From an uncultured Marinilabiliales bacterium (GTDB lineage Bacteria; Bacteroidota; Bacteroidia; Bacteroidales; BM523), in assembly GCA_938004395.1 (NCBI GenBank), contig CALKWC010000042.1, forward strand, positions 1-54,829: DNA of 54,829 bases, given 5' to 3'. Made by a program: the position numbers and the translations under genes. The notes below the pieces were generated by a model. That model worked only from the letters and a program-made list of their open reading frames with translations. It was not told the DNA's origin and made no database searches. Shown here in pieces: positions 1 through 9,948 of the stretch; positions within the stretch are counted from its first letter, which is position 1; every line of letters starts with the position of its first letter.

Positions 1-1
1 C

Positions 2-2023
2 TACAGCAATGTATTTGATAAAAAACCTAAAACAGTTCCGGTTGATAAGGTTGTTTCTGTCATTAAAAGCGATAAGCTAAAATCCAGTATTGAGCAAATA
101 AGAACCTCAAAGGATAAAAAAAGTATTGAACAACTAAAAAAGAAGCTCCCGGCCGTAACTGTTTCAGGTATTTTTGTAAACGGTCACAAATCAAGTGATA
201 TACAAAAACACTCAGGGCTAATTCAAATAGACATTGACAAAAAGGACAATCCTGAAATAAATGGCATTTCAAGCAGTTTAAAGAATGATCCTTATACATG
301 TGTGCAATTCGCCAGTCCATCTGGAGGGATTAAAGTGTTTGCCAGAATACCGGAAAACACAAAAGAACACACCATACTTTTTACAAAGCTTGAAGCCTAC
401 TATAAAAACAGATACGGTATTTCAATTGATAAAAAATGCAAGGATATTGGGCGTCTTTGCTTTTTATCCTACGATCCTGAAATTTACTACAACAATAATG
501 CTTCATCATTTTATCCTGGTAAAAGTGTATCACAAGACGTTGAAAAAGTTCTGTCTATCATTGAGAAAAACAAAATTGATATTACTCAAGACTATCAATC
601 CTGGTTAAAAATCGGATTTGCTTTCTCAAGCGAGTTTGGCGAAAGTGGTAGGCTTTTGTTTCACCGGGTAAGCAAATTTTATACTGGCTATAATATACAA
701 GATTGCAATATTCAGTATGACAAGTGCTTGAATGGGAACAAAGAGGGAGCTAGTATAAAATCATTTTTTCAGATAGCTAAAGATCACAAAATTGATATTT
801 CACCGGCTGAAAATACAAATACAGATAAATCCAATGAAAACAAAGATTCAATTATTGGTATTACAGTATTTCATCAGGCTGAAGCTTATCTATCAAAAAA
901 ATATAATTTCAGGAGAAACATTGTAGCAAATAGAATTGAATACAAGGAAAAAGACGGAAATCATTTTACCGAATTGATAATAGACAACTTATTCATTGAG
1001 CTACAAAAAAAAGGGATTAAAATAGCCTTAAACAACCTTGAATCTCTTTTCAGATCAAGCTATATAAAAGACTTCGACCCCTTAATTGGCTATTTTACAA
1101 ACCTACCTGCTTGGGATGGTGTAGATCACATAGCAAATTTTGCAAGCTATGTAAATGCAAAAGACAAAGAAAGGTTTGTACATCATTTTAAGAAATGGCT
1201 TGCCCGTTCTGTTAAAACAGCGATTGACCCAAATTTTTTCAACAAACAGGCTTTTATTCTTGTTGGCGTTGGTGAACAAAACCAAAATAGTGGAAAAACA
1301 ACCTGGTGTCGTTTCCTGTGCCCTAAGCCCCTTAAAAACTATATCAAAGAAAATCTAGGCACTGACAAGGATAGTAGAATAAACCTGGCTCAAAACTTTA
1401 TCATTAATCTGGATGAACTTGCCAGTTTATATGCGAAAGAAGTTAATGCGCTTAAATCATACTTTTCAATATCTCAAATTAAGGAACGTCTTCCCTATGG
1501 CAAAATAAATGTACAATTTCCAAGGCGTTGCAGTTTTGTAGGAAGTACAAATAATTCTGAATTTTTAAATGATGAAACCGGATCCGTCAGGTGGCTAACT
1601 TTTGAAATAGAATCTATAAACTGGGCATATTCAAAAGAAATTGATATTGACAAGGTTTATTCTCAGGCAGTACACCTGTTAAATGACCCTGATTTTGAAT
1701 ACAACCTAACAATTGAGGAGCAAAAAGAAAACGATCTAATTAATAAGAAGCACCAACTTTTATCAGAAGAACATGAGCTCATTCAGAAATACTTTGAACC
1801 AAGCGAAAAGGGAATGCCAGAATCTAAATTTATGACTGCCACTGACATTATGAAGATAATACAGGATGAAACTGGTCATACATTTAAACTCAGTCATGTA
1901 AAAGTAGGCAAAGCCTTAAAATTTCTGGGCTTTATTCAAAGTCAATCATATAATGATAACGGATATCAGATCAAAGGATATTATATAAAACCAAAAACCG
2001 AGAATTCGGGCAAACCTTTTTAA
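2..2023 (+). CDS. VapE/VirE-family P-loop NTPase with a BT4734-like primase-type N-terminal domain; 5' end truncated by the window edge
   Basis: The frame of ORF 302..2023 stays open back to base 2 (YSNVFDKKPKTVPVDKV...IQIDIDKKDNPEI...FASPSGGIKVFARIP). It has a Walker A-like GEQNQNSGKTT and a Walker B-like IINLDEL. This architecture is typical of replication proteins of Bacteroidota integrative elements. Confidence 0.7.
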   Translation, partial: YSNVFDKKPKTVPVDKVVSVIKSDKLKSSIEQIRTSKDKKSIEQLKKKLPAVTVSGIFVNGHKSSDIQKHSGLIQIDIDKKDNPEINGISSSLKNDPYTCVQFASPSGGIKVFARIPENTKEHTILFTKLEAYYKNRYGISIDKKCKDIGRLCFLSYDPEIYYNNNASSFYPGKSVSQDVEKVLSIIEKNKIDITQDYQSWLKIGFAFSSEFGESGRLLFHRVSKFYTGYNIQDCNIQYDKCLNGNKEGASIKSFFQIAKDHKIDISPAENTNTDKSNENKDSIIGITVFHQAEAYLSKKYNFRRNIVANRIEYKEKDGNHFTELIIDNLFIELQKKGIKIALNNLESLFRSSYIKDFDPLIGYFTNLPAWDGVDHIANFASYVNAKDKERFVHHFKKWLARSVKTAIDPNFFNKQAFILVGVGEQNQNSGKTTWCRFLCPKPLKNYIKENLGTDKDSRINLAQNFIINLDELASLYAKEVNALKSYFSISQIKERLPYGKINVQFPRRCSFVGSTNNSEFLNDETGSVRWLTFEIESINWAYSKEIDIDKVYSQAVHLLNDPDFEYNLTIEEQKENDLINKKHQLLSEEHELIQKYFEPSEKGMPESKFMTATDIMKIIQDETGHTFKLSHVKVGKALKFLGFIQSQSYNDNGYQIKGYYIKPKTENSGKPF

Positions 2024-2024
2024 T

Positions 2025-2318
2025 ATGGATCAGGAAATAAGAAAACTAAAAAAGGAATTGACAGCCGCTAAGAAGAAAAACAAAGAGCTTCAAAAAAACC
2101 TAGAACTAAAGACCAATTCAAAAATTGAATTTTGCTTCACAGCTCAGGAGTTAGAATTCATGGTTGAGTCTGTTATTGATAAAACGCTTTCTATCTATGA
2201 TCAGCTTTCATTTAAAGACATTGATCTGAAAATTCAAAACAATGAGCTGGTGAAACATTTTAACGAACAGATACAAATTGGTAATAAAATAGTAAGTAAA
2301 CTAAGGTTTACTGATTAA
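2025..2318 (+). CDS. Hypothetical coiled-coil protein (element-borne)
   Basis: The ATG lies 1 nt after the upstream stop. The N-terminus is K/E-rich and helical (IRKLKKELTAAKKKNKELQKNLE). No recognisable family. Confidence 0.5.
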   Translation: MDQEIRKLKKELTAAKKKNKELQKNLELKTNSKIEFCFTAQELEFMVESVIDKTLSIYDQLSFKDIDLKIQNNELVKHFNEQIQIGNKIVSKLRFTD

Positions 2319-2400
2319 ATAAACGGTCTATAACAGTTACAACCAGTATATAAATTCAGTCAAAATGCAGTAAATAGCTAACCCCTTAAACCTTATAATT

Positions 2401-2817
2401 ATGCTAAACAAGAATTGTACAGTATGCGGAAAAGAGTTCGATCAGCCCAGAAAAAACAAATTATACTGTTCCGACTCATGCAAACAGAAAGCTCACACAC
2501 TAAACAAGAAAAGACTAGAAAATGAACTTTTAGGCGAATCGAAACAAGAAAGAATTAAGGAGCCATTATACTCTTTCAAATTTTCAGAATTCCAGGCAAC
2601 TAAAGATATAATCAATACAATAGAGACATTTTGCTTTGTAAGAAAAAATATTGTTGGAAATTTCAACCCTATATACTTCAAAGAATATGTTGAAGCATTG
2701 CAACGTAATGGATTCTTTGATGAACTAGAATGGGAGGAGAGCAAATTAAATAAGGAATACAACCAATTCAAATTGATGTATCATAGTGGATTGGTCAAAA
2801 TAGAATTTGAAGATTAG
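2401..2817 (+). CDS. Hypothetical zinc-ribbon protein (element-borne)
   Basis: N-terminal CxxC...CxxxC motif (CTVCGKEF...YCSDSCKQKAH). It is followed by two hairpins, the second being a strong terminator. Confidence 0.55.
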   Translation: MLNKNCTVCGKEFDQPRKNKLYCSDSCKQKAHTLNKKRLENELLGESKQERIKEPLYSFKFSEFQATKDIINTIETFCFVRKNIVGNFNPIYFKEYVEALQRNGFFDELEWEESKLNKEYNQFKLMYHSGLVKIEFED

Positions 2818-2856
2818 TTTTCTGGGATTCCCCATTGGGGAATTTGCTTTCATGCC

Positions 2857-2888
2857 GGAGGGGAGTCTAGTACTTCCCTCCTTTTTTT
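2857..2888 (+). terminator. Rho-independent terminator
   Basis: ggaggggag (2857-2865) pairs with cttccctcc (2873-2881): 9 bp with one G-U and a 7-nt loop, followed by TTTTTTT (2882-2888). A second small hairpin, attcccc/ggggaat, sits at 2827-2843. Confidence 0.7.
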
Positions 2889-2920
2889 ATGTTCCTAACC
2901 GTTTCAGTGAAACTGGTTTT

Positions 2921-3175
2921 TTTATCTTACTTCCTTACTTCATCTACACAAACCACAATAATATAAATGTATATGTTGATATTTACTATCTTACTTCATT
3001 CTTACTTTGTTCTTACTTCCTACTTCATAACAAAGTAAGATAAAGTAAGAACATTTTAGCAGTATTATTTATCTTACTTCGTTTTATTTGCCTAATTATA
3101 TGGCACATACAAGCAAATGAAGTAAGGAAGTAGGGAAGTAGGTAGAAAAACAAACTTCTGAAAAAATTTCAGAAA
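2921..3175. repeat. Iteron-like field of CTTACTT heptamers (direct and inverted copies) with nested inverted repeats
   Basis: CTTACTT occurs at 2926, 2934, 2990, 3001, 3012 and 3073. The reverse complement AAGTAAG occurs at 3033, 3043 and 3120, with degenerate gaagtag copies at 3127-3145. There is a 12-bp inverted repeat, tcttactttgtt (3000-3011) / aacaaagtaaga (3029-3040), and a further one, ttctgaaa/tttcagaa, at about 3156-3174. Confidence 0.6.
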
Positions 3176-3228
3176 AATGGGTTATATTTTTTGATTTTGG
3201 GTATTAACTAATATATAGCTGAACAATT

Positions 3229-4074
3229 ATGACTATTCGTAAATGGTATTCGATTAATATTGACAAGGAAAGACAAGCCAGATACCTTGAAAAATTCGCA
3301 ATTATTACAATTTCGTTAGGTGTTGGATTTATTGTACTGTTTCTTGGTATGTTTTTGTATCAAAGGCAACTAAACTTTTTCCAACCAATTGATACATCAG
3401 TATGGGGGCAGTTTGGGGATTTGTTCGGTGGTGTCATCGGTTCGTTATGGGCATTTGCAGGTGTGGCACTTTTTTACCTTGCATTGCATGAACAAAGAAA
3501 AGAGCTCAAAACAACACAAGGCATATTAGAAAATGAGGTAGAAGCATTAAATAATCAAAAAAAGGAAGCAGAATTATCAAATAAGCTAATTCTTGAACAG
3601 CAGAAAACACAGCGATTACAGCAGTTTGATAATGCTTATTTTAGTTTACTGCAAATACTTAATACTATTACCGACAAAATCACTTATGAAGAAGAAGAAG
3701 AAAGGAGATCCGGAAAAAGCGCAATGAAATTATATAAAAAAGATTTCTACACGATTTTTAGAAACCATGATGGGAATGAGATAGACAAGAGGACATCCTA
3801 TTTCAGATTTAATGAAAAAAATGGACACAATTACAATCATCAACATGAATTAATAACAGAAATTGTCTATTTCATAGACGCAAATGATCAGTATAATGAA
3901 ATATTTGGGAAGGATTACTACATATCAATTCTCACATCTACACTATCACAAGATGAATTGATTTTATATTACTATTATGTGAAATATGAAAAAAAGACCA
4001 TAATGAATATTATTAGAGAATTGAAAGTTTTTCATAAGCTTTCACCTGGTTTGCTTGCTTATCAAAATGATTGA
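3229..4074 (+). CDS. Membrane protein resembling the putative phage abortive-infection family (putAbiC-like)
   Basis: It has two N-terminal TM segments, with WGQFGDLFGGVIGSLWAFAGVALFYLALHEQ. A coiled coil follows, then a C-terminal region with YISILTSTLSQDELILYYYY. This pattern matches my recollection of Pfam putAbiC. Confidence 0.45.
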   Translation: MTIRKWYSINIDKERQARYLEKFAIITISLGVGFIVLFLGMFLYQRQLNFFQPIDTSVWGQFGDLFGGVIGSLWAFAGVALFYLALHEQRKELKTTQGILENEVEALNNQKKEAELSNKLILEQQKTQRLQQFDNAYFSLLQILNTITDKITYEEEEERRSGKSAMKLYKKDFYTIFRNHDGNEIDKRTSYFRFNEKNGHNYNHQHELITEIVYFIDANDQYNEIFGKDYYISILTSTLSQDELILYYYYVKYEKKTIMNIIRELKVFHKLSPGLLAYQND

Positions 4075-4267
4075 TTTTATATAACGTAGTATCTATTTTT
4101 AATAGTGACTGCATCTTAAATTGTTATTGTTTGCTTCTATTTTCGATGATGACTATATCTTTTTTTTATACCGAGAACATAATATATAGTTACACTATCA
4201 GTATGCATTCTTGTTTTTTTAAAACTAAAAATATAATATTGCAAGCGATAATCTGAAAAGGATTGAT

Positions 4268-4825
4268 TTGGAACCGAATATTATTGGATATCACAGTAAT
4301 ACAGAAGACAAAGCTAACAAATTCGTTAATAATGGTGAGTTAGCAATATCACCAGATACTTATTATTTAGGAAAGGGAATGTATTTCTGGGATAACATTG
4401 GAAATGCAGAGTATTGGGCAGCCGAGAAAATTAGGAAGTCGAAAAAAGAGAAAAAGCCAATTGACAAAGTTTTGATTTGTAGAGCTAACGTTATTTTAAA
4501 AGAACCAATATTAGATTTAACTGACTCGTTGACTATTGAGGATCTGAAAGAATTATGGATTAGTTATTGTGAGAAGAAAAAGGAAACAAAAAAGCGACAA
4601 CTATTAGGAACAATCATTGATATTCTGATGGATTTTTTTCCAGTACTACAAGAAATGAAGGTTTCTAAGTGTCACGGGGACTATTCTCACCATAAAATGG
4701 CATATTTTCTTGACAAATACGTTGAAAAGTTGTATATTACAAACAACATAAAAACAATTTATTGCGTTAGATGTAAAACTAGAATCGCAGATCAGAGAAT
4801 TTTTGACACTATTTTATCAAAATAA
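4268..4825 (+). CDS. Candidate PARP-like / DUF3990-like ADP-ribosyltransferase-fold protein (putative toxin); TTG start
   Basis: It has an N-terminal IIGYHSN and then LGKGMYFWDNIGNAEYWA, which resembles the PARP GKGIYFAD...SANY segment. A later YVEKLYITN strand resembles PARP YNEYIVY. The candidate triad is H9/Y39/E153. It is the first gene of a three-gene operon. Confidence 0.45.
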   Translation: MEPNIIGYHSNTEDKANKFVNNGELAISPDTYYLGKGMYFWDNIGNAEYWAAEKIRKSKKEKKPIDKVLICRANVILKEPILDLTDSLTIEDLKELWISYCEKKKETKKRQLLGTIIDILMDFFPVLQEMKVSKCHGDYSHHKMAYFLDKYVEKLYITNNIKTIYCVRCKTRIADQRIFDTILSK

Positions 4826-4847
4826 TAATTATATATATATTTGAACC

Positions 4848-5141
4848 ATGAAAAGTCATGATTTGTTGCGAAAAGCATTGGAAGAGTTGGATAACATGTC
4901 TCAAGAAGAGGTTCAGGCAAGAAGCGAAGAGCTTGGCATAGTTATTCCAGAGGAGCCAAAAATATCAGAATTGATGAGTAATTTTGTTTTTGATTTGAAA
5001 GGCTTCTTCAAAGAAATTGTTAATTCTAAACATACTTGGTATGATAATGAATTTTCAAAACGACAAAGTATTTCAGTAAAACAACCAAAAATGAGCCACA
5101 GTAAAGTGGCTCATTCTTTTTATACTCCAATCTTTTCATAA
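4848..5141 (+). CDS. Small acidic helical protein, candidate antitoxin with an aromatic C-terminal tail
   Basis: 97 aa, starting 22 nt after the upstream stop and ending 1 nt before the SecB-like gene. The N-terminal half is acidic. The C-terminal segment is ...KHTWYDNEFSKRQ...SFYTPIFS. Confidence 0.4.
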   Translation: MKSHDLLRKALEELDNMSQEEVQARSEELGIVIPEEPKISELMSNFVFDLKGFFKEIVNSKHTWYDNEFSKRQSISVKQPKMSHSKVAHSFYTPIFS

Positions 5142-5142
5142 T

Positions 5143-5550
5143 ATGAGCGAAAAATCAGGATTTCAATTTGAAGATTATGTTATTAGAAAATCTGTATTCA
5201 TAATAAATGGAAAATCAGACAAACACTATGAAACAAAAATAAATCCTAGTGGTATTATTCATAAGAATAAAAAGCAATTTCAACTCTCACTAGATATTAT
5301 TGTGTCTGATAAGGATGAAAATCATTTCATAAATATTGAATCAGTTGCACTATTTACTTATAAAGGTGATATACAAAAAATATGGGATTATTTTCTAACT
5401 AATGCACCTGCTATATTATTCCCGTATCTAAGAGCATATATATCTTCTTTAACAGCCTTATCAGGAACTGATACAATAATACTACCCACAATGAATTTAA
5501 CTGGTTTAAAACAGGTATTAGAAGAAAACATACAGTTAATTGAAGAATAA
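5143..5550 (+). CDS. SecB-like chaperone
   Basis: NAPAILFPYLRAYISSLTALSGTDTIILPTMNL matches the conserved SecB segment (E. coli [32 protein letters not shown], recalled from memory). The size of 135 aa and the N-terminal FQFEDYVIRKSVF strand are also SecB-like. Confidence 0.7.
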   Translation: MSEKSGFQFEDYVIRKSVFIINGKSDKHYETKINPSGIIHKNKKQFQLSLDIIVSDKDENHFINIESVALFTYKGDIQKIWDYFLTNAPAILFPYLRAYISSLTALSGTDTIILPTMNLTGLKQVLEENIQLIEE

Positions 5551-5556
5551 TATAAT

Positions 5557-6708
5557 TCATTTATCCCACTTCCTCATTTCCTTTTCTTTAAGCTCTCGTT
5601 CAATACTAGCATAAATCTGGGTTGTTCTCAAGTCGGTATGTCCTAGCAACTTTGAAAGCACCTCTATAGGAATACCAAGCGAAATCCCGTTTGTTGCAAA
5701 AGTATGCCTGGCACAATGAAAGCTTATTGATTTTTTTATTCCTACAGCTGTCATAATGTCCTTTATGTACCTGTTTGTAGGTTGATTGCTCAGGACTTTA
5801 AATACTTTCATTTCCGGGATCTTGTCATCCTGATCCGGGAGAAGCTCCATTGCTTTATTTACAATCGGAATTTCAACAAGCTTGCCCGTCTTGTGCATAT
5901 CAATTCTAATATAATTGTGATCAATATGTTTATATTTCAAATCGTAAACATCATGATATCGCAGACCCGTATAGCAGGAAAACAGAAAATATCTAAGTAC
6001 ATTTTTTTGTCCCGTCTTTATAGATCCGGACCGGTAAAGCTTCATTAATGTATCAAGCTCCTGCATGGATAAATATTGCCTGTTTCCCTCAATTTTACCA
6101 ATATGATAATTTTTAAAAGGATTCTCTTTTACTAGGTTTGCTGTTATGGCTTTGTTAATTACCTGTTTTATGAATGATAACGACTTCTTAATGGTATTGC
6201 TGTTGTTTTTCAATTTAGCAATCATATAGTGTTCATATGCCTTTATGAAGTTGATATCGATATCATCAAATGACAAGCGAGGACGAAACTTTTTAAGCTT
6301 TGAAATTTGTGTATTATATGTCCTGATAGTACCATCTGAAAATTTAGCTTGCAGCTGAGGTATTTCAGATTCGATAAATTCATAAAAAGAATTGTACAGG
6401 CTATAGCTGGTTTTAAACCTCCTTAAAAATTCCTCGAAAGAAATACTTTTACCCTCTACGGTCATTTTAAACAGAATATCGTTTGCTTTCGTTTCAAACA
6501 GGTCTATCATTCTGTTTTTGTGTAAATATTGCGGATCTGTTCTTCTGATTCTGCAATTTGTAGGATTCCAACAGTTTAGCTTCGTACTTATATTCAAACT
6601 GATGTCCTTTTTTCTCCGGTTTATTATTATTCTGATATATATCGGATGTGTATTATCCGATTTTTTATAATCTTGCCTAAGAAATACTATAACTGTAGGT
6701 GTCATTCG
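5557..6708 (-). CDS. int: Tyrosine recombinase / integrase (Bacteroidota Arm-DNA-binding + SAM-like + catalytic domains)
   Basis: C-terminal HCARHTFAT...LLGHTDLRTTQIYA, and YTGLRYHDV. The N-terminal MTPTVIVFLRQDYKKSDNTHPIYIRIIINRRK is arm-binding-like. The maximal ORF reaches 6786, but its first 26 codons look non-coding, so the start is placed at 6708. Confidence 0.85.
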   Translation of the reverse strand, partial: RMTPTVIVFLRQDYKKSDNTHPIYIRIIINRRKKDISLNISTKLNCWNPTNCRIRRTDPQYLHKNRMIDLFETKANDILFKMTVEGKSISFEEFLRRFKTSYSLYNSFYEFIESEIPQLQAKFSDGTIRTYNTQISKLKKFRPRLSFDDIDINFIKAYEHYMIAKLKNNSNTIKKSLSFIKQVINKAITANLVKENPFKNYHIGKIEGNRQYLSMQELDTLMKLYRSGSIKTGQKNVLRYFLFSCYTGLRYHDVYDLKYKHIDHNYIRIDMHKTGKLVEIPIVNKAMELLPDQDDKIPEMKVFKVLSNQPTNRYIKDIMTAVGIKKSISFHCARHTFATNGISLGIPIEVLSKLLGHTDLRTTQIYASIERELKEKEMRKWDK

Positions 6709-6799
6709 TTCAATTTCTCTGTGAAGCCATTGTGAAACATTTTGGTAAAAATAATGAAATTTTACGTTAAACGAAATTAAACGCAATCTTTTGAAATAC

Positions 6800-6839
6800 C
6801 TAAAAACAAAAAGGATTGAAACAAATTATTTCAATCCTT
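6800..6839 (-). terminator. Hairpin plus T-run downstream of tRNA-Cys
   Basis: A perfect 11-bp inverted repeat, aaggattgaaa (6811-6821) / tttcaatcctt (6829-6839). On the minus strand it is followed by tttttgttttt. Confidence 0.6.
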
Positions 6840-6848
6840 CAACATTCT

Positions 6849-6922
6849 TGGAGGTCAGTGGCGGATTCGAACCGCCGTAGCTGGTTTTGCAGACCAGAGC
6901 CTAGCCACTCGGCCAACTGACC
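6849..6922 (-). tRNA. tRNA-Cys (anticodon GCA), CCA encoded
   Basis: The minus strand reads GGTCAGTTGGCCGAGTGGCTAGGCTCTGGTCTGCAAAACCAGCTACGGCGGTTCGAATCCGCCACTGACCTCCA. The acceptor stem is GGTCAGT/ACTGACC. The anticodon stem is CTGGT/ACCAG with loop CTGCAAA. The T arm is GGCGG-TTCGAATC-CCGCC. Confidence 0.9.
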
Positions 6923-9630: not shown

Positions 9631-9948
9631 ATGAGTGATAAAAGTGAATACGGTCTACTGGTTGAAGATTTAGAGTTAATAATTTCAATTCTTGAAAAAA
9701 ATGACCGTATAAAGGAAATAGTTTTATTTGGATCAAGAGCAAAAGGTAATTATTCTGATGGTTCTGATATTGATCTTGCGCTCAAGGGTGATAATTTAGA
9801 ACTGCGCGATCTTACAAATGTTAAAATCGATCTTGATGGTCTTCTGATTCCAAATAAAATCGATTTAGTTATTTTCAACAGAATAACAGAAAAAGCTTTA
9901 ATCGAACATATACAAAGGGTGGGAATAGTCCTTTATAAAAGAGTCTAA
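9631..9948 (+). CDS. Minimal nucleotidyltransferase (MNT), partner of the HEPN protein
   Basis: The GSx10DxD motif is present as LFGSRAKGNYSDGSDIDLAL. 105 aa. Confidence 0.8.
   Translation: MSDKSEYGLLVEDLELIISILEKNDRIKEIVLFGSRAKGNYSDGSDIDLALKGDNLELRDLTNVKIDLDGLLIPNKIDLVIFNRITEKALIEHIQRVGIVLYKRV

Follow-up and report, generated by a model that had tools for sequence, protein, structure and literature searches.

A probable CmdTAC-family toxin–antitoxin–chaperone operon on a small tRNA-Cys integrative element of a Marinilabiliales genome

CmdTAC, or PD-T4-9, is a three-gene anti-phage system described in 2022 (PMC9519451). Its toxin, CmdT, is a diphtheria-toxin-type ADP-ribosyltransferase (ART) in which the substitution Y41A abolishes both defence and toxicity; its antitoxin, CmdA, begins with a pair of helices and continues into a disordered C-terminus whose last residues are LAA, and its chaperone, CmdC, is a SecB-like tetramer (PMC11618068). 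Newly made capsid protein of phage T4 titrates CmdC, ClpP then degrades CmdA, and the freed CmdT ADP-ribosylates single-stranded RNA at the N6 position of adenine in GA dinucleotides, which blocks translation (PMC11618068). A companion preprint on a second E. coli CmdTAC reached the same conclusions and found that changing the C-terminal Ala-Ala of CmdA to Asp-Asp abolishes the toxicity of CmdTA (bioRxiv 10.1101/2024.02.24.581848). Toxin, antitoxin and chaperone form a complex with a ratio of 1:1:4. Here we analyze a related locus at positions 4268-5550 of contig CALKWC010000042.1, which belongs to a metagenome-assembled genome (MAG) of an uncultured Marinilabiliales bacterium; the window that we analyzed is this entire contig of 54,829 nucleotides (nt). 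The original prediction for this stretch was a toxin–antitoxin–chaperone (TAC) module with a PARP-like ART as toxin, an idea that turned out to be largely right but not new.

Positions 4268-5550 very probably represent a three-gene operon of the CmdTAC (PD-T4-9) family, carried as cargo by a small tRNA-Cys integrative element of this genome. The operon is made of three open reading frames (ORFs):

4268..4825, plus strand: ORF1, cmdT-like toxin gene (185 aa, TTG start) for a predicted H-Y-type ADP-ribosyltransferase
4848..5141, plus strand: ORF2, cmdA-like antitoxin gene (97 aa); its product has two predicted helices at the N-terminus, and its C-terminal half is rich in aromatic residues and probably disordered
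5143..5550, plus strand: ORF3, cmdC-like gene for a SecB-type chaperone (135 aa; PADLOC PD-T4-9_C PDLC04072, Pfam SecB)

The packing of these ORFs was found exactly as originally described, with gaps of 22 nt (ORF1/ORF2) and 1 nt (ORF2/ORF3), and all of the peptides quoted for them are present (IIGYHSN, LGKGMYFWDNIGNAEYWA and YVEKLYITNNIKTIYCV in ORF1; NAPAILFPYLRAYISSLTALSGTDTIILPTMNL in ORF3). The TTG codon of ORF1 is the sole start that retains H9, and the homologues of this protein begin at the equivalent position. These are genuine genes rather than chance reading frames: ORF1 has 9 close homologues in a word-indexed search and 812 cluster representatives in a profile scan, ORF3 has 34 homologues, and the gene order is recurrent.

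As a reference, we located a cmdTAC locus of E. coli (L006) in complete genomes through the authors' primer CD9 (cmdT/cmdA junction). This locus, whose products have 192, 77 and 129 aa, is part of a P2-like prophage hotspot and served as positive control for the PADLOC PD-T4-9 A, B and C models (321, 128 and 202 bits, respectively). The window presents the same gene order as the E. coli systems (ECOR22, O112ab:H26), with proteins of 185, 97 and 135 aa versus 190-192, 77 and 129 aa. It carries CmdT and CmdC matches within two genes of each other, as the published calling rule has it (applied here with PADLOC models, not DefenseFinder), and likewise shows the published arrangement in which a CmdT homologue is followed by a second ORF and then by a SecB-like gene. 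Carriage by a mobile element is a further common feature: a P2-like prophage hotspot in E. coli, a tRNA-Cys integrative element here.

The relationship of ORF1 to CmdT was assessed at the level of profiles, because pairwise BLAST of the two toxins was marginal and ORF2 could not be aligned with CmdA. ORF1 did not match any Pfam family (E<=1) and matched the PADLOC model PD-T4-9_A with an E-value of 8.2e-8 over residues 15-122. A hidden Markov model (HMM) that we built from 119 E. coli-type CmdT homologues scored ORF1 at 25 bits, and all members of the ORF1 family (9/9) at 17-35 bits. When the two families were aligned to each other with hhalign, the probability was 97.3-98.2% over 151-182 columns, with E-values of 2e-11 in local mode and 4e-13 in global mode (182 columns). 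In the joint alignment—numbered as in the published CmdT, whose start, according to primer CD7, lies two residues downstream of that in RefSeq—H9 of the window corresponds to H9 of CmdT and Y39 to its catalytic Y41. Both residues are invariant across the 137 sequences of the window's clade (137/137), and their E. coli-type counterparts are found in 118-119 of 119 sequences. The alignment further pairs G-M-Y-F-W-D with G-Y-Y-F-W-T-D, I-L-D-L with L-L-D-L, and K134 with K134. The elements G-x-Y-F-W, L-D-L and K134 are, together with the His and the Tyr, invariant or nearly so in both families.

The AlphaFold2 (AF2) model of ORF1 presents a mean predicted local distance difference test (pLDDT) score of 84.8 and a predicted template modelling (TM) score of 0.80, and is confident except for the loop 140-159. 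The 36 best Foldseek matches of this model in the PDB are all PARPs, NatT, diphtheria toxin, tankyrase or exotoxin A. PARP2 and PARP1 come first (E from 1.6e-3, probability up to 1.0, TM about 0.45-0.46), followed by PARP10, NatT, diphtheria toxin, tankyrase and exotoxin A. In the viral library of Foldseek, the matches are PolyVal ART and PARP-domain proteins. The PARP-like ART fold originally suggested for this toxin is therefore supported by the Foldseek ranking. To our knowledge, no structure has been solved for the CmdT family, and sequence searches of the PDB with each of the three proteins and with the clade profile returned nothing relevant. The profile and structure comparisons show that ORF1 is a CmdT homologue with a predicted ADP-ribosyltransferase fold, in which the NAD+ pocket retains its conserved His and Tyr.

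PARPs carry the strand motif G-K-G-I-Y-F-A-D, and the GKGMYFWD strand of ORF1 corresponds to it, as originally noted. ORF1 shares its predicted fold and its His and Tyr NAD+-binding positions with PARP1, PARP2, PARP10, exotoxin A, diphtheria toxin and DarT. It is unlike them in being much smaller, in carrying a helical insert (residues 87-128), in belonging to another partner system and in having no identifiable catalytic Glu. This likeness holds at the level of fold only: ORF1 did not match Pfam PARP (PF00644), for which its relative P0180 reached 14.9 bits versus a cutoff of 26.7. The resemblance to DUF3990 (PF13151) that had also been proposed did not hold either, with no match for ORF1 and 17 bits for its relative P0008 versus a cutoff of 32.2.

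By pairwise BLAST against E. coli, the third gene gives the one clear match. ORF3 matches PADLOC PD-T4-9_C (PDLC04072) over its full length (E 2.2e-30, 103.5 bits), reaches 27.4 bits against Pfam SecB (cutoff 26) and shares 31% identity with E. coli CmdC (BLAST, E 1e-12). The proposal of a TAC operon with a SecB-like third gene was borne out by these matches, which show that ORF3 encodes a CmdC-type chaperone homologous to that of E. coli rather than a housekeeping SecB.

ORF2 presents no match in Pfam. We searched it with an HMM of 28 antitoxin-position ORFs drawn from other loci that are not close relatives, and it scored 20.5 bits, versus a maximum of 7.7 bits and a mean of 2.5 bits for 200 shuffled sequences. 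The match falls in the N-terminal motif LL.KALEEL.NMS.EEV. ORF2 had been described as acidic and helical with an aromatic tail, and this applies in part: only the N-terminal half is acidic (pI 4.5), while the C-terminal half is basic (pI 9.7) and contains all 10 aromatic residues of the protein (residues 46-97). A single-sequence AF2 model, which is weak evidence, places helices at residues 3-15 and 19-29 (pLDDT 71-82); the remainder scores 43-60, and the last 24 residues show no secondary structure. ORF2 is the small antitoxin-position protein of this family, with the N-terminal helices and disordered tail of the E. coli antitoxin as predicted features. Its aromatic C-terminal half, which is probably disordered, is a candidate chaperone-addiction region. 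The locus shares its tripartite logic with the classical TAC modules (HigB1-HigA1-Rv1957, or SecB-TA, of Mycobacterium tuberculosis; HigBAC and MqsRAC of E. coli), whose SecB-like chaperones protect the antitoxin through an aromatic C-terminal chaperone-addiction region. In contrast to this locus, the toxins of those modules are RNases (HigB, MqsR, HicA) and their antitoxins present helix-turn-helix or other canonical folds.

We then considered how widely the three genes occur together. An exhaustive profile scan for the toxin clade yielded 812 cluster representatives at E<=1e-3 and 205 at E<=1e-10, nearly all of about 170-200 aa, and each of the full-length representatives that were tested also matched the HMM of E. 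coli-type CmdT (128/128). Scanning species-representative genomes for G-x-G-M-Y-F-W-D identified 66 loci in Bacteroidota, Spirochaetota, Lachnospiraceae, lactobacilli, Streptococcus mitis/oralis, Staphylococcus and Enterococcus, as well as Sumerlaeota, Leptotrichia and one archaeal MAG. Synteny was counted on the 67 species-level loci with at least 800 nt of downstream sequence. A same-strand SecB-like ORF lies just downstream of the toxin homologue in 53 of these 67 loci—the neighbourhood conservation that had been expected—and a middle ORF is present in 41 of the 53 under strict criteria. The loci that do not present a SecB-like neighbour mostly carry truncated toxins or are weak matches of ~205 aa at ~50 bits. 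The order toxin, small ORF, SecB-like gene therefore recurs in independent genomes and is conserved across phyla.

Several observations weigh against assigning the locus to the CmdTAC family. The match of ORF1 to PD-T4-9_A is confined to residues 15-122, its pairwise BLASTP match to E. coli CmdT is marginal (E 0.01), and the toxin is recognizable at the profile level only. The Foldseek E-values are modest, with no PDB match at E<=1e-3; a comparably modest figure was given for E. coli CmdT itself, whose r.m.s.d. to exotoxin A is 6.9 A in the original paper (PMC11618068). The invariant Gln164 of E. coli-type CmdT aligns with Lys or Arg, or lies beside an insertion, in the window's clade. The antitoxin has no similarity to E. 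coli CmdA by BLAST or to PADLOC PD-T4-9_B, and CmdA reaches 0.2 bits on the antitoxin HMM of the clade. ORF2 also does not end in the C-terminal Ala-Ala ClpX degron that CmdTA toxicity requires in E. coli. A further difference from the E. coli systems is the phylum of the host. The dissimilarity of ORF2 and CmdA does not decide membership, because the authors of CmdTAC omit CmdA from their calling as too variable. As for the degron, HigA of E. coli HigBAC offers a precedent for the window's antitoxin: it ends in Leu-Pro, with neither Ala-Ala nor Val-Ala, and is ClpXP-independent. On balance, we still regard membership in the CmdTAC family as very probable.

By analogy with the E. coli system, a chaperone tetramer would hold the aromatic disordered tail of the antitoxin, allowing the antitoxin to fold and to neutralize the toxin. 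Upon phage infection, an abundant phage structural protein would compete for the chaperone and the antitoxin would be lost. The freed toxin might then use NAD+ to ADP-ribosylate single-stranded mRNA, so that translation stops and the infection aborts. Consumption of NAD+ had been raised as another effector mode, but NAD+ depletion is not the published mechanism of CmdTAC.

The surroundings of the operon place it on a mobile element. The relevant features are the following:

302..2023, plus strand: primase/VapE-type replication protein of the element (Pfam VapE-like 1.1e-35, PriCT_2, BT4734-like_N)
3229..4074, plus strand: membrane protein whose C-terminus weakly resembles AbiC (Pfam putAbiC 20.6 bits versus a cutoff of 22; phrog_8999 E 1.7e-14, full length)
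4075..4267, plus strand: AT-rich intergenic sequence of 193 nt, presumed promoter region of the operon
5557..6786, minus strand: tyrosine integrase of the element (Pfam Phage_integrase 1.6e-22, Phage_int_SAM_5, Arm-DNA-bind_5)
6849..6922, minus strand: tRNA-Cys gene, probable integration site (ARAGORN; Rfam tRNA 62 bits)

The tRNA-Cys gene abuts the integrase and coincides with a step in GC-content, from 29-34% over positions 1-6848 to 36-41% beyond. We interpret the operon as cargo of an integrative element because of this tRNA-Cys/integrase junction, the GC step and the VapE/PriCT primase-helicase. A second att copy (the 3' end of tRNA-Cys) was not found within the whole contig; the left boundary of the element is beyond the left end of the contig. 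Of the flanking genes that had been named, the integrase is thus clear, and the putAbiC-like gene upstream of the operon is borderline. The scan for promoters upstream of ORF1 returned only weak sigma-70-like matches and is uninformative here, as it does not cover the promoters of Bacteroidota.

Given this setting, the module could mainly be an addiction cassette that stabilizes the tRNA-Cys element by post-segregational killing, rather than an anti-phage system acting by abortive infection. The operon lies directly beside the integrase of the element, in convergent orientation and with the two stop codons 6 nt apart; related operons also adjoin integrases, insertion sequence elements and prophage genes, and the first descriptions of TAC modules were made without reference to phage. 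However, both CmdTAC systems that have been studied experimentally give protection against phage and have phage structural proteins as their triggers, and the gene adjoining the operon (3229-4074) may be a second abortive-infection or defence gene of the same element. We consider it unlikely that addiction is the main role, bearing in mind that addiction and defence are not mutually exclusive. The product of the adjoining gene is a protein of 281 aa with hydrophobic N-terminal segments and the sub-threshold putAbiC C-terminus mentioned above.

If the operon is indeed a CmdTAC-type defence module, its toxin may still differ from CmdT in what it does. The candidate triad first proposed for ORF1 was H9-Y39-E153, of which the His and the Tyr stand and the Glu does not: position 153 is a Glu in only 1 of the 9 close homologues, most sequences of the 137-member clade have a gap in this column, and the residue sits in a loop with a pLDDT below 50. 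In E. coli CmdT, E153 corresponds to E155, a residue conserved in 73% of the E. coli subfamily but not in the window's clade. In E. coli-type CmdT, Q164 is invariant (119/119) and opens the strand Q-L-C-V-F. The Glu or Gln of ARTs is normally found at the start of such a strand. From strand order and this general topology, we infer that Gln164 may occupy the usual place of the catalytic Glu/Gln. At or beside this position the window presents K162 (~4751-4753), which is Lys in 91 and Arg in 37 of the 137 clade sequences. No conserved E, D or Q is found in the clade alignment where the predicted beta5-like strand (residues 163-167) begins, and D137 of the E. coli type (114/119) aligns with a Gly. 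Because of the Lys/Arg at the Gln164 position and the lack of a conserved E/D/Q, catalysis or target could differ from those of CmdT: ORF1 might be an NADase, or might modify another base, another nucleic acid or a protein. Against this, the alignment of the region is unstable, with two MAFFT runs placing it two columns apart; the preceding loop 140-159 is modelled with low confidence, and Gln164 is itself no more than a candidate for the third catalytic residue of CmdT. Moreover, PARPs of the H-Y-hydrophobic type, PARP10 among them, are active enzymes that modify RNA, and the window's clade keeps the His, the Tyr and the aromatic pocket without exception. A toxin of diverged chemistry or target seems rather improbable to us, slightly more so than a module acting mainly in addiction.

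Another possibility is that the copy in the window is no longer intact. ORF2 ends in ...VAHSFYTPIFS, whereas the antitoxins of the Bacteroidota subclade end in ALSF or ALSY: at positions 5128-5141 the stop codon of the closest relatives was lost (TAA to TAT), which adds the six residues YTPIFS after the conserved ...SF. Several related loci in addition have truncated toxins or no chaperone. Both observations would suit a decaying, non-functional TAC remnant. Yet the three ORFs are full length relative to their families, all residues invariant in the toxin clade are present, the chaperone aligns with the whole of its model and the tight spacing of the genes is kept, which makes decay a very unlikely explanation.

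That ORF3 could be the housekeeping SecB export chaperone of this genome, standing next to ORF1 and ORF2 by accident, is suggested by its GenBank name ('protein export chaperone SecB') and by a Pfam SecB score just above the cutoff, but it can practically be dismissed, as the NCBIfam secB equivalogs give at most 23.9 bits versus cutoffs of 102.8-223 while PD-T4-9_C gives 103.5 bits, and the gene sits on a low-GC mobile element in a three-gene arrangement found in 53/67 loci across phyla.

The end of the antitoxin gene deserves separate consideration. Among the antitoxin-position ORFs of related loci, 28/37 end in Ala-Ala and 4/37 in Val-Ala, which suggests that the logic of the ClpX degron is widespread. 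The Bacteroidota subclade that includes the window departs from it, and its antitoxin/chaperone junction also carries a structured element:

5090..5115 (T-run to 5125), plus strand: hairpin followed by a T-run, terminator- or attenuator-like (terminator scan, RNA fold)

This perfect 10-bp hairpin lies within the last codons of ORF2, 28 nt before the start of the chaperone gene, and folds as RNA with -18.2 kcal/mol (z -3.5). A hairpin with T-run was also found in six relatives of the Bacteroidota subclade, with three different stem sequences and with changes in the encoded peptide:

L001: ~4821-4850
L005: ~1214-1245
L007: ~988-1020
L012: ~4811-4845
L073: ~1527-1552
L074: ~948-973

Locus L075 was left out of this analysis, since the 3' end of its antitoxin gene is replaced and its contig ends there. 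In the seven-sequence alignment, 92.9% of the cells are paired, and in three pairs both partners vary. None of 500 shuffled alignments reached the observed pairing or covariation (0/500), and slid controls paired at 30-51%. The hairpin is absent from the other 46 loci, E. coli included, and no Rfam family matched it. As a terminator or attenuator, or as an element of RNA stability, it could determine the ratio of toxin and antitoxin to chaperone.

In the relatives, the 3' arm of the hairpin and the T-run encode the conserved V-A-L-S-F-stop. Because the ...ALSF end is encoded by this covarying structure, a ratio set at the RNA level and a different route of antitoxin decay are suggested for the subclade. 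Taken together with the Lys/Arg of the toxin, these features would make the Bacteroidota systems a mechanistic variant of CmdTAC, with an ...ALSF end in place of the degron, a ratio of toxin–antitoxin to chaperone set by RNA, another decay of the antitoxin and a toxin of other catalysis or target. We put this forward as a speculative and rather unlikely idea.

A TAC system with an ART toxin would have been a new toxin class for chaperone-controlled toxin–antitoxin systems, as originally claimed, and this claim falls because the published CmdTAC family—described in 2022, with ADP-ribosylation of mRNA shown in 2024—includes the system of the window. Chaperone control of an ART toxin is already established and nothing categorically new is seen here. 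The analysis places a divergent, apparently intact CmdTAC on an integrative element of Marinilabiliales, in a phylum with no prior study of the system. It also indicates that the clade of G-x-G-M-Y-F-W-D-N toxins is large (812 cluster representatives), extending over Bacteroidota, Spirochaetota and many Firmicutes. The departures from the E. coli paradigm in the degron, the junction hairpin and the Gln164 position could show how antitoxin turnover and toxin chemistry are tuned in TAC systems.

Additional observations were made on related loci. In locus L003, a holin and an endolysin (2008-2924) lie beside the three genes (4001-5269), and in E. coli locus L006 the operon has P2-like replication genes on one side and portal genes on the other. 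Matches of ORF1 and ORF3 to phage protein families were found as well (phrog_14664 and phrog_21664). These settings and matches suggest that carriage by phages or prophages is common in both subfamilies. The toxin of L003 (P0008, 4001-4555) presents weak PADLOC matches to PDC-M13A and PDC-M13B (E 1e-3 to 2e-4), a hint of distant kinship with other ART-like candidate systems. A further set of proteins of ~187-205 aa, from L065, L067, L069 and L070 (Chitinophagaceae, Edaphocola, Balneolales and Bacteroidia MAGs) and from L072 (a Methanomassiliicoccaceae archaeon), matches the toxin profile weakly (47-61 bits) and carries G-x-G-M-Y-F-W-D with no SecB-like gene downstream. This set may form a separate, chaperone-free subfamily.

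Within the element itself, three to four iteron-like direct repeats (TTATCTTACTTCCT) were found at positions 2918-3083. They are 84-100% identical, spaced by 61-86 nt and intergenic, between a zinc-ribbon ORF (2401-2817) and the AbiC-like gene, and might serve the element as a site of replication or regulation. Outside the island, the product of the plus-strand gene at 9143-9613 matches Pfam NTase_sub_bind (HEPN-like) with 128 bits, and this gene adjoins a plus-strand gene for a Polbeta/NTP_transf_2 minimal nucleotidyltransferase (MNT) at 9631-9948 (70 bits); the pair is a toxin–antitoxin of the HEPN/MNT type.

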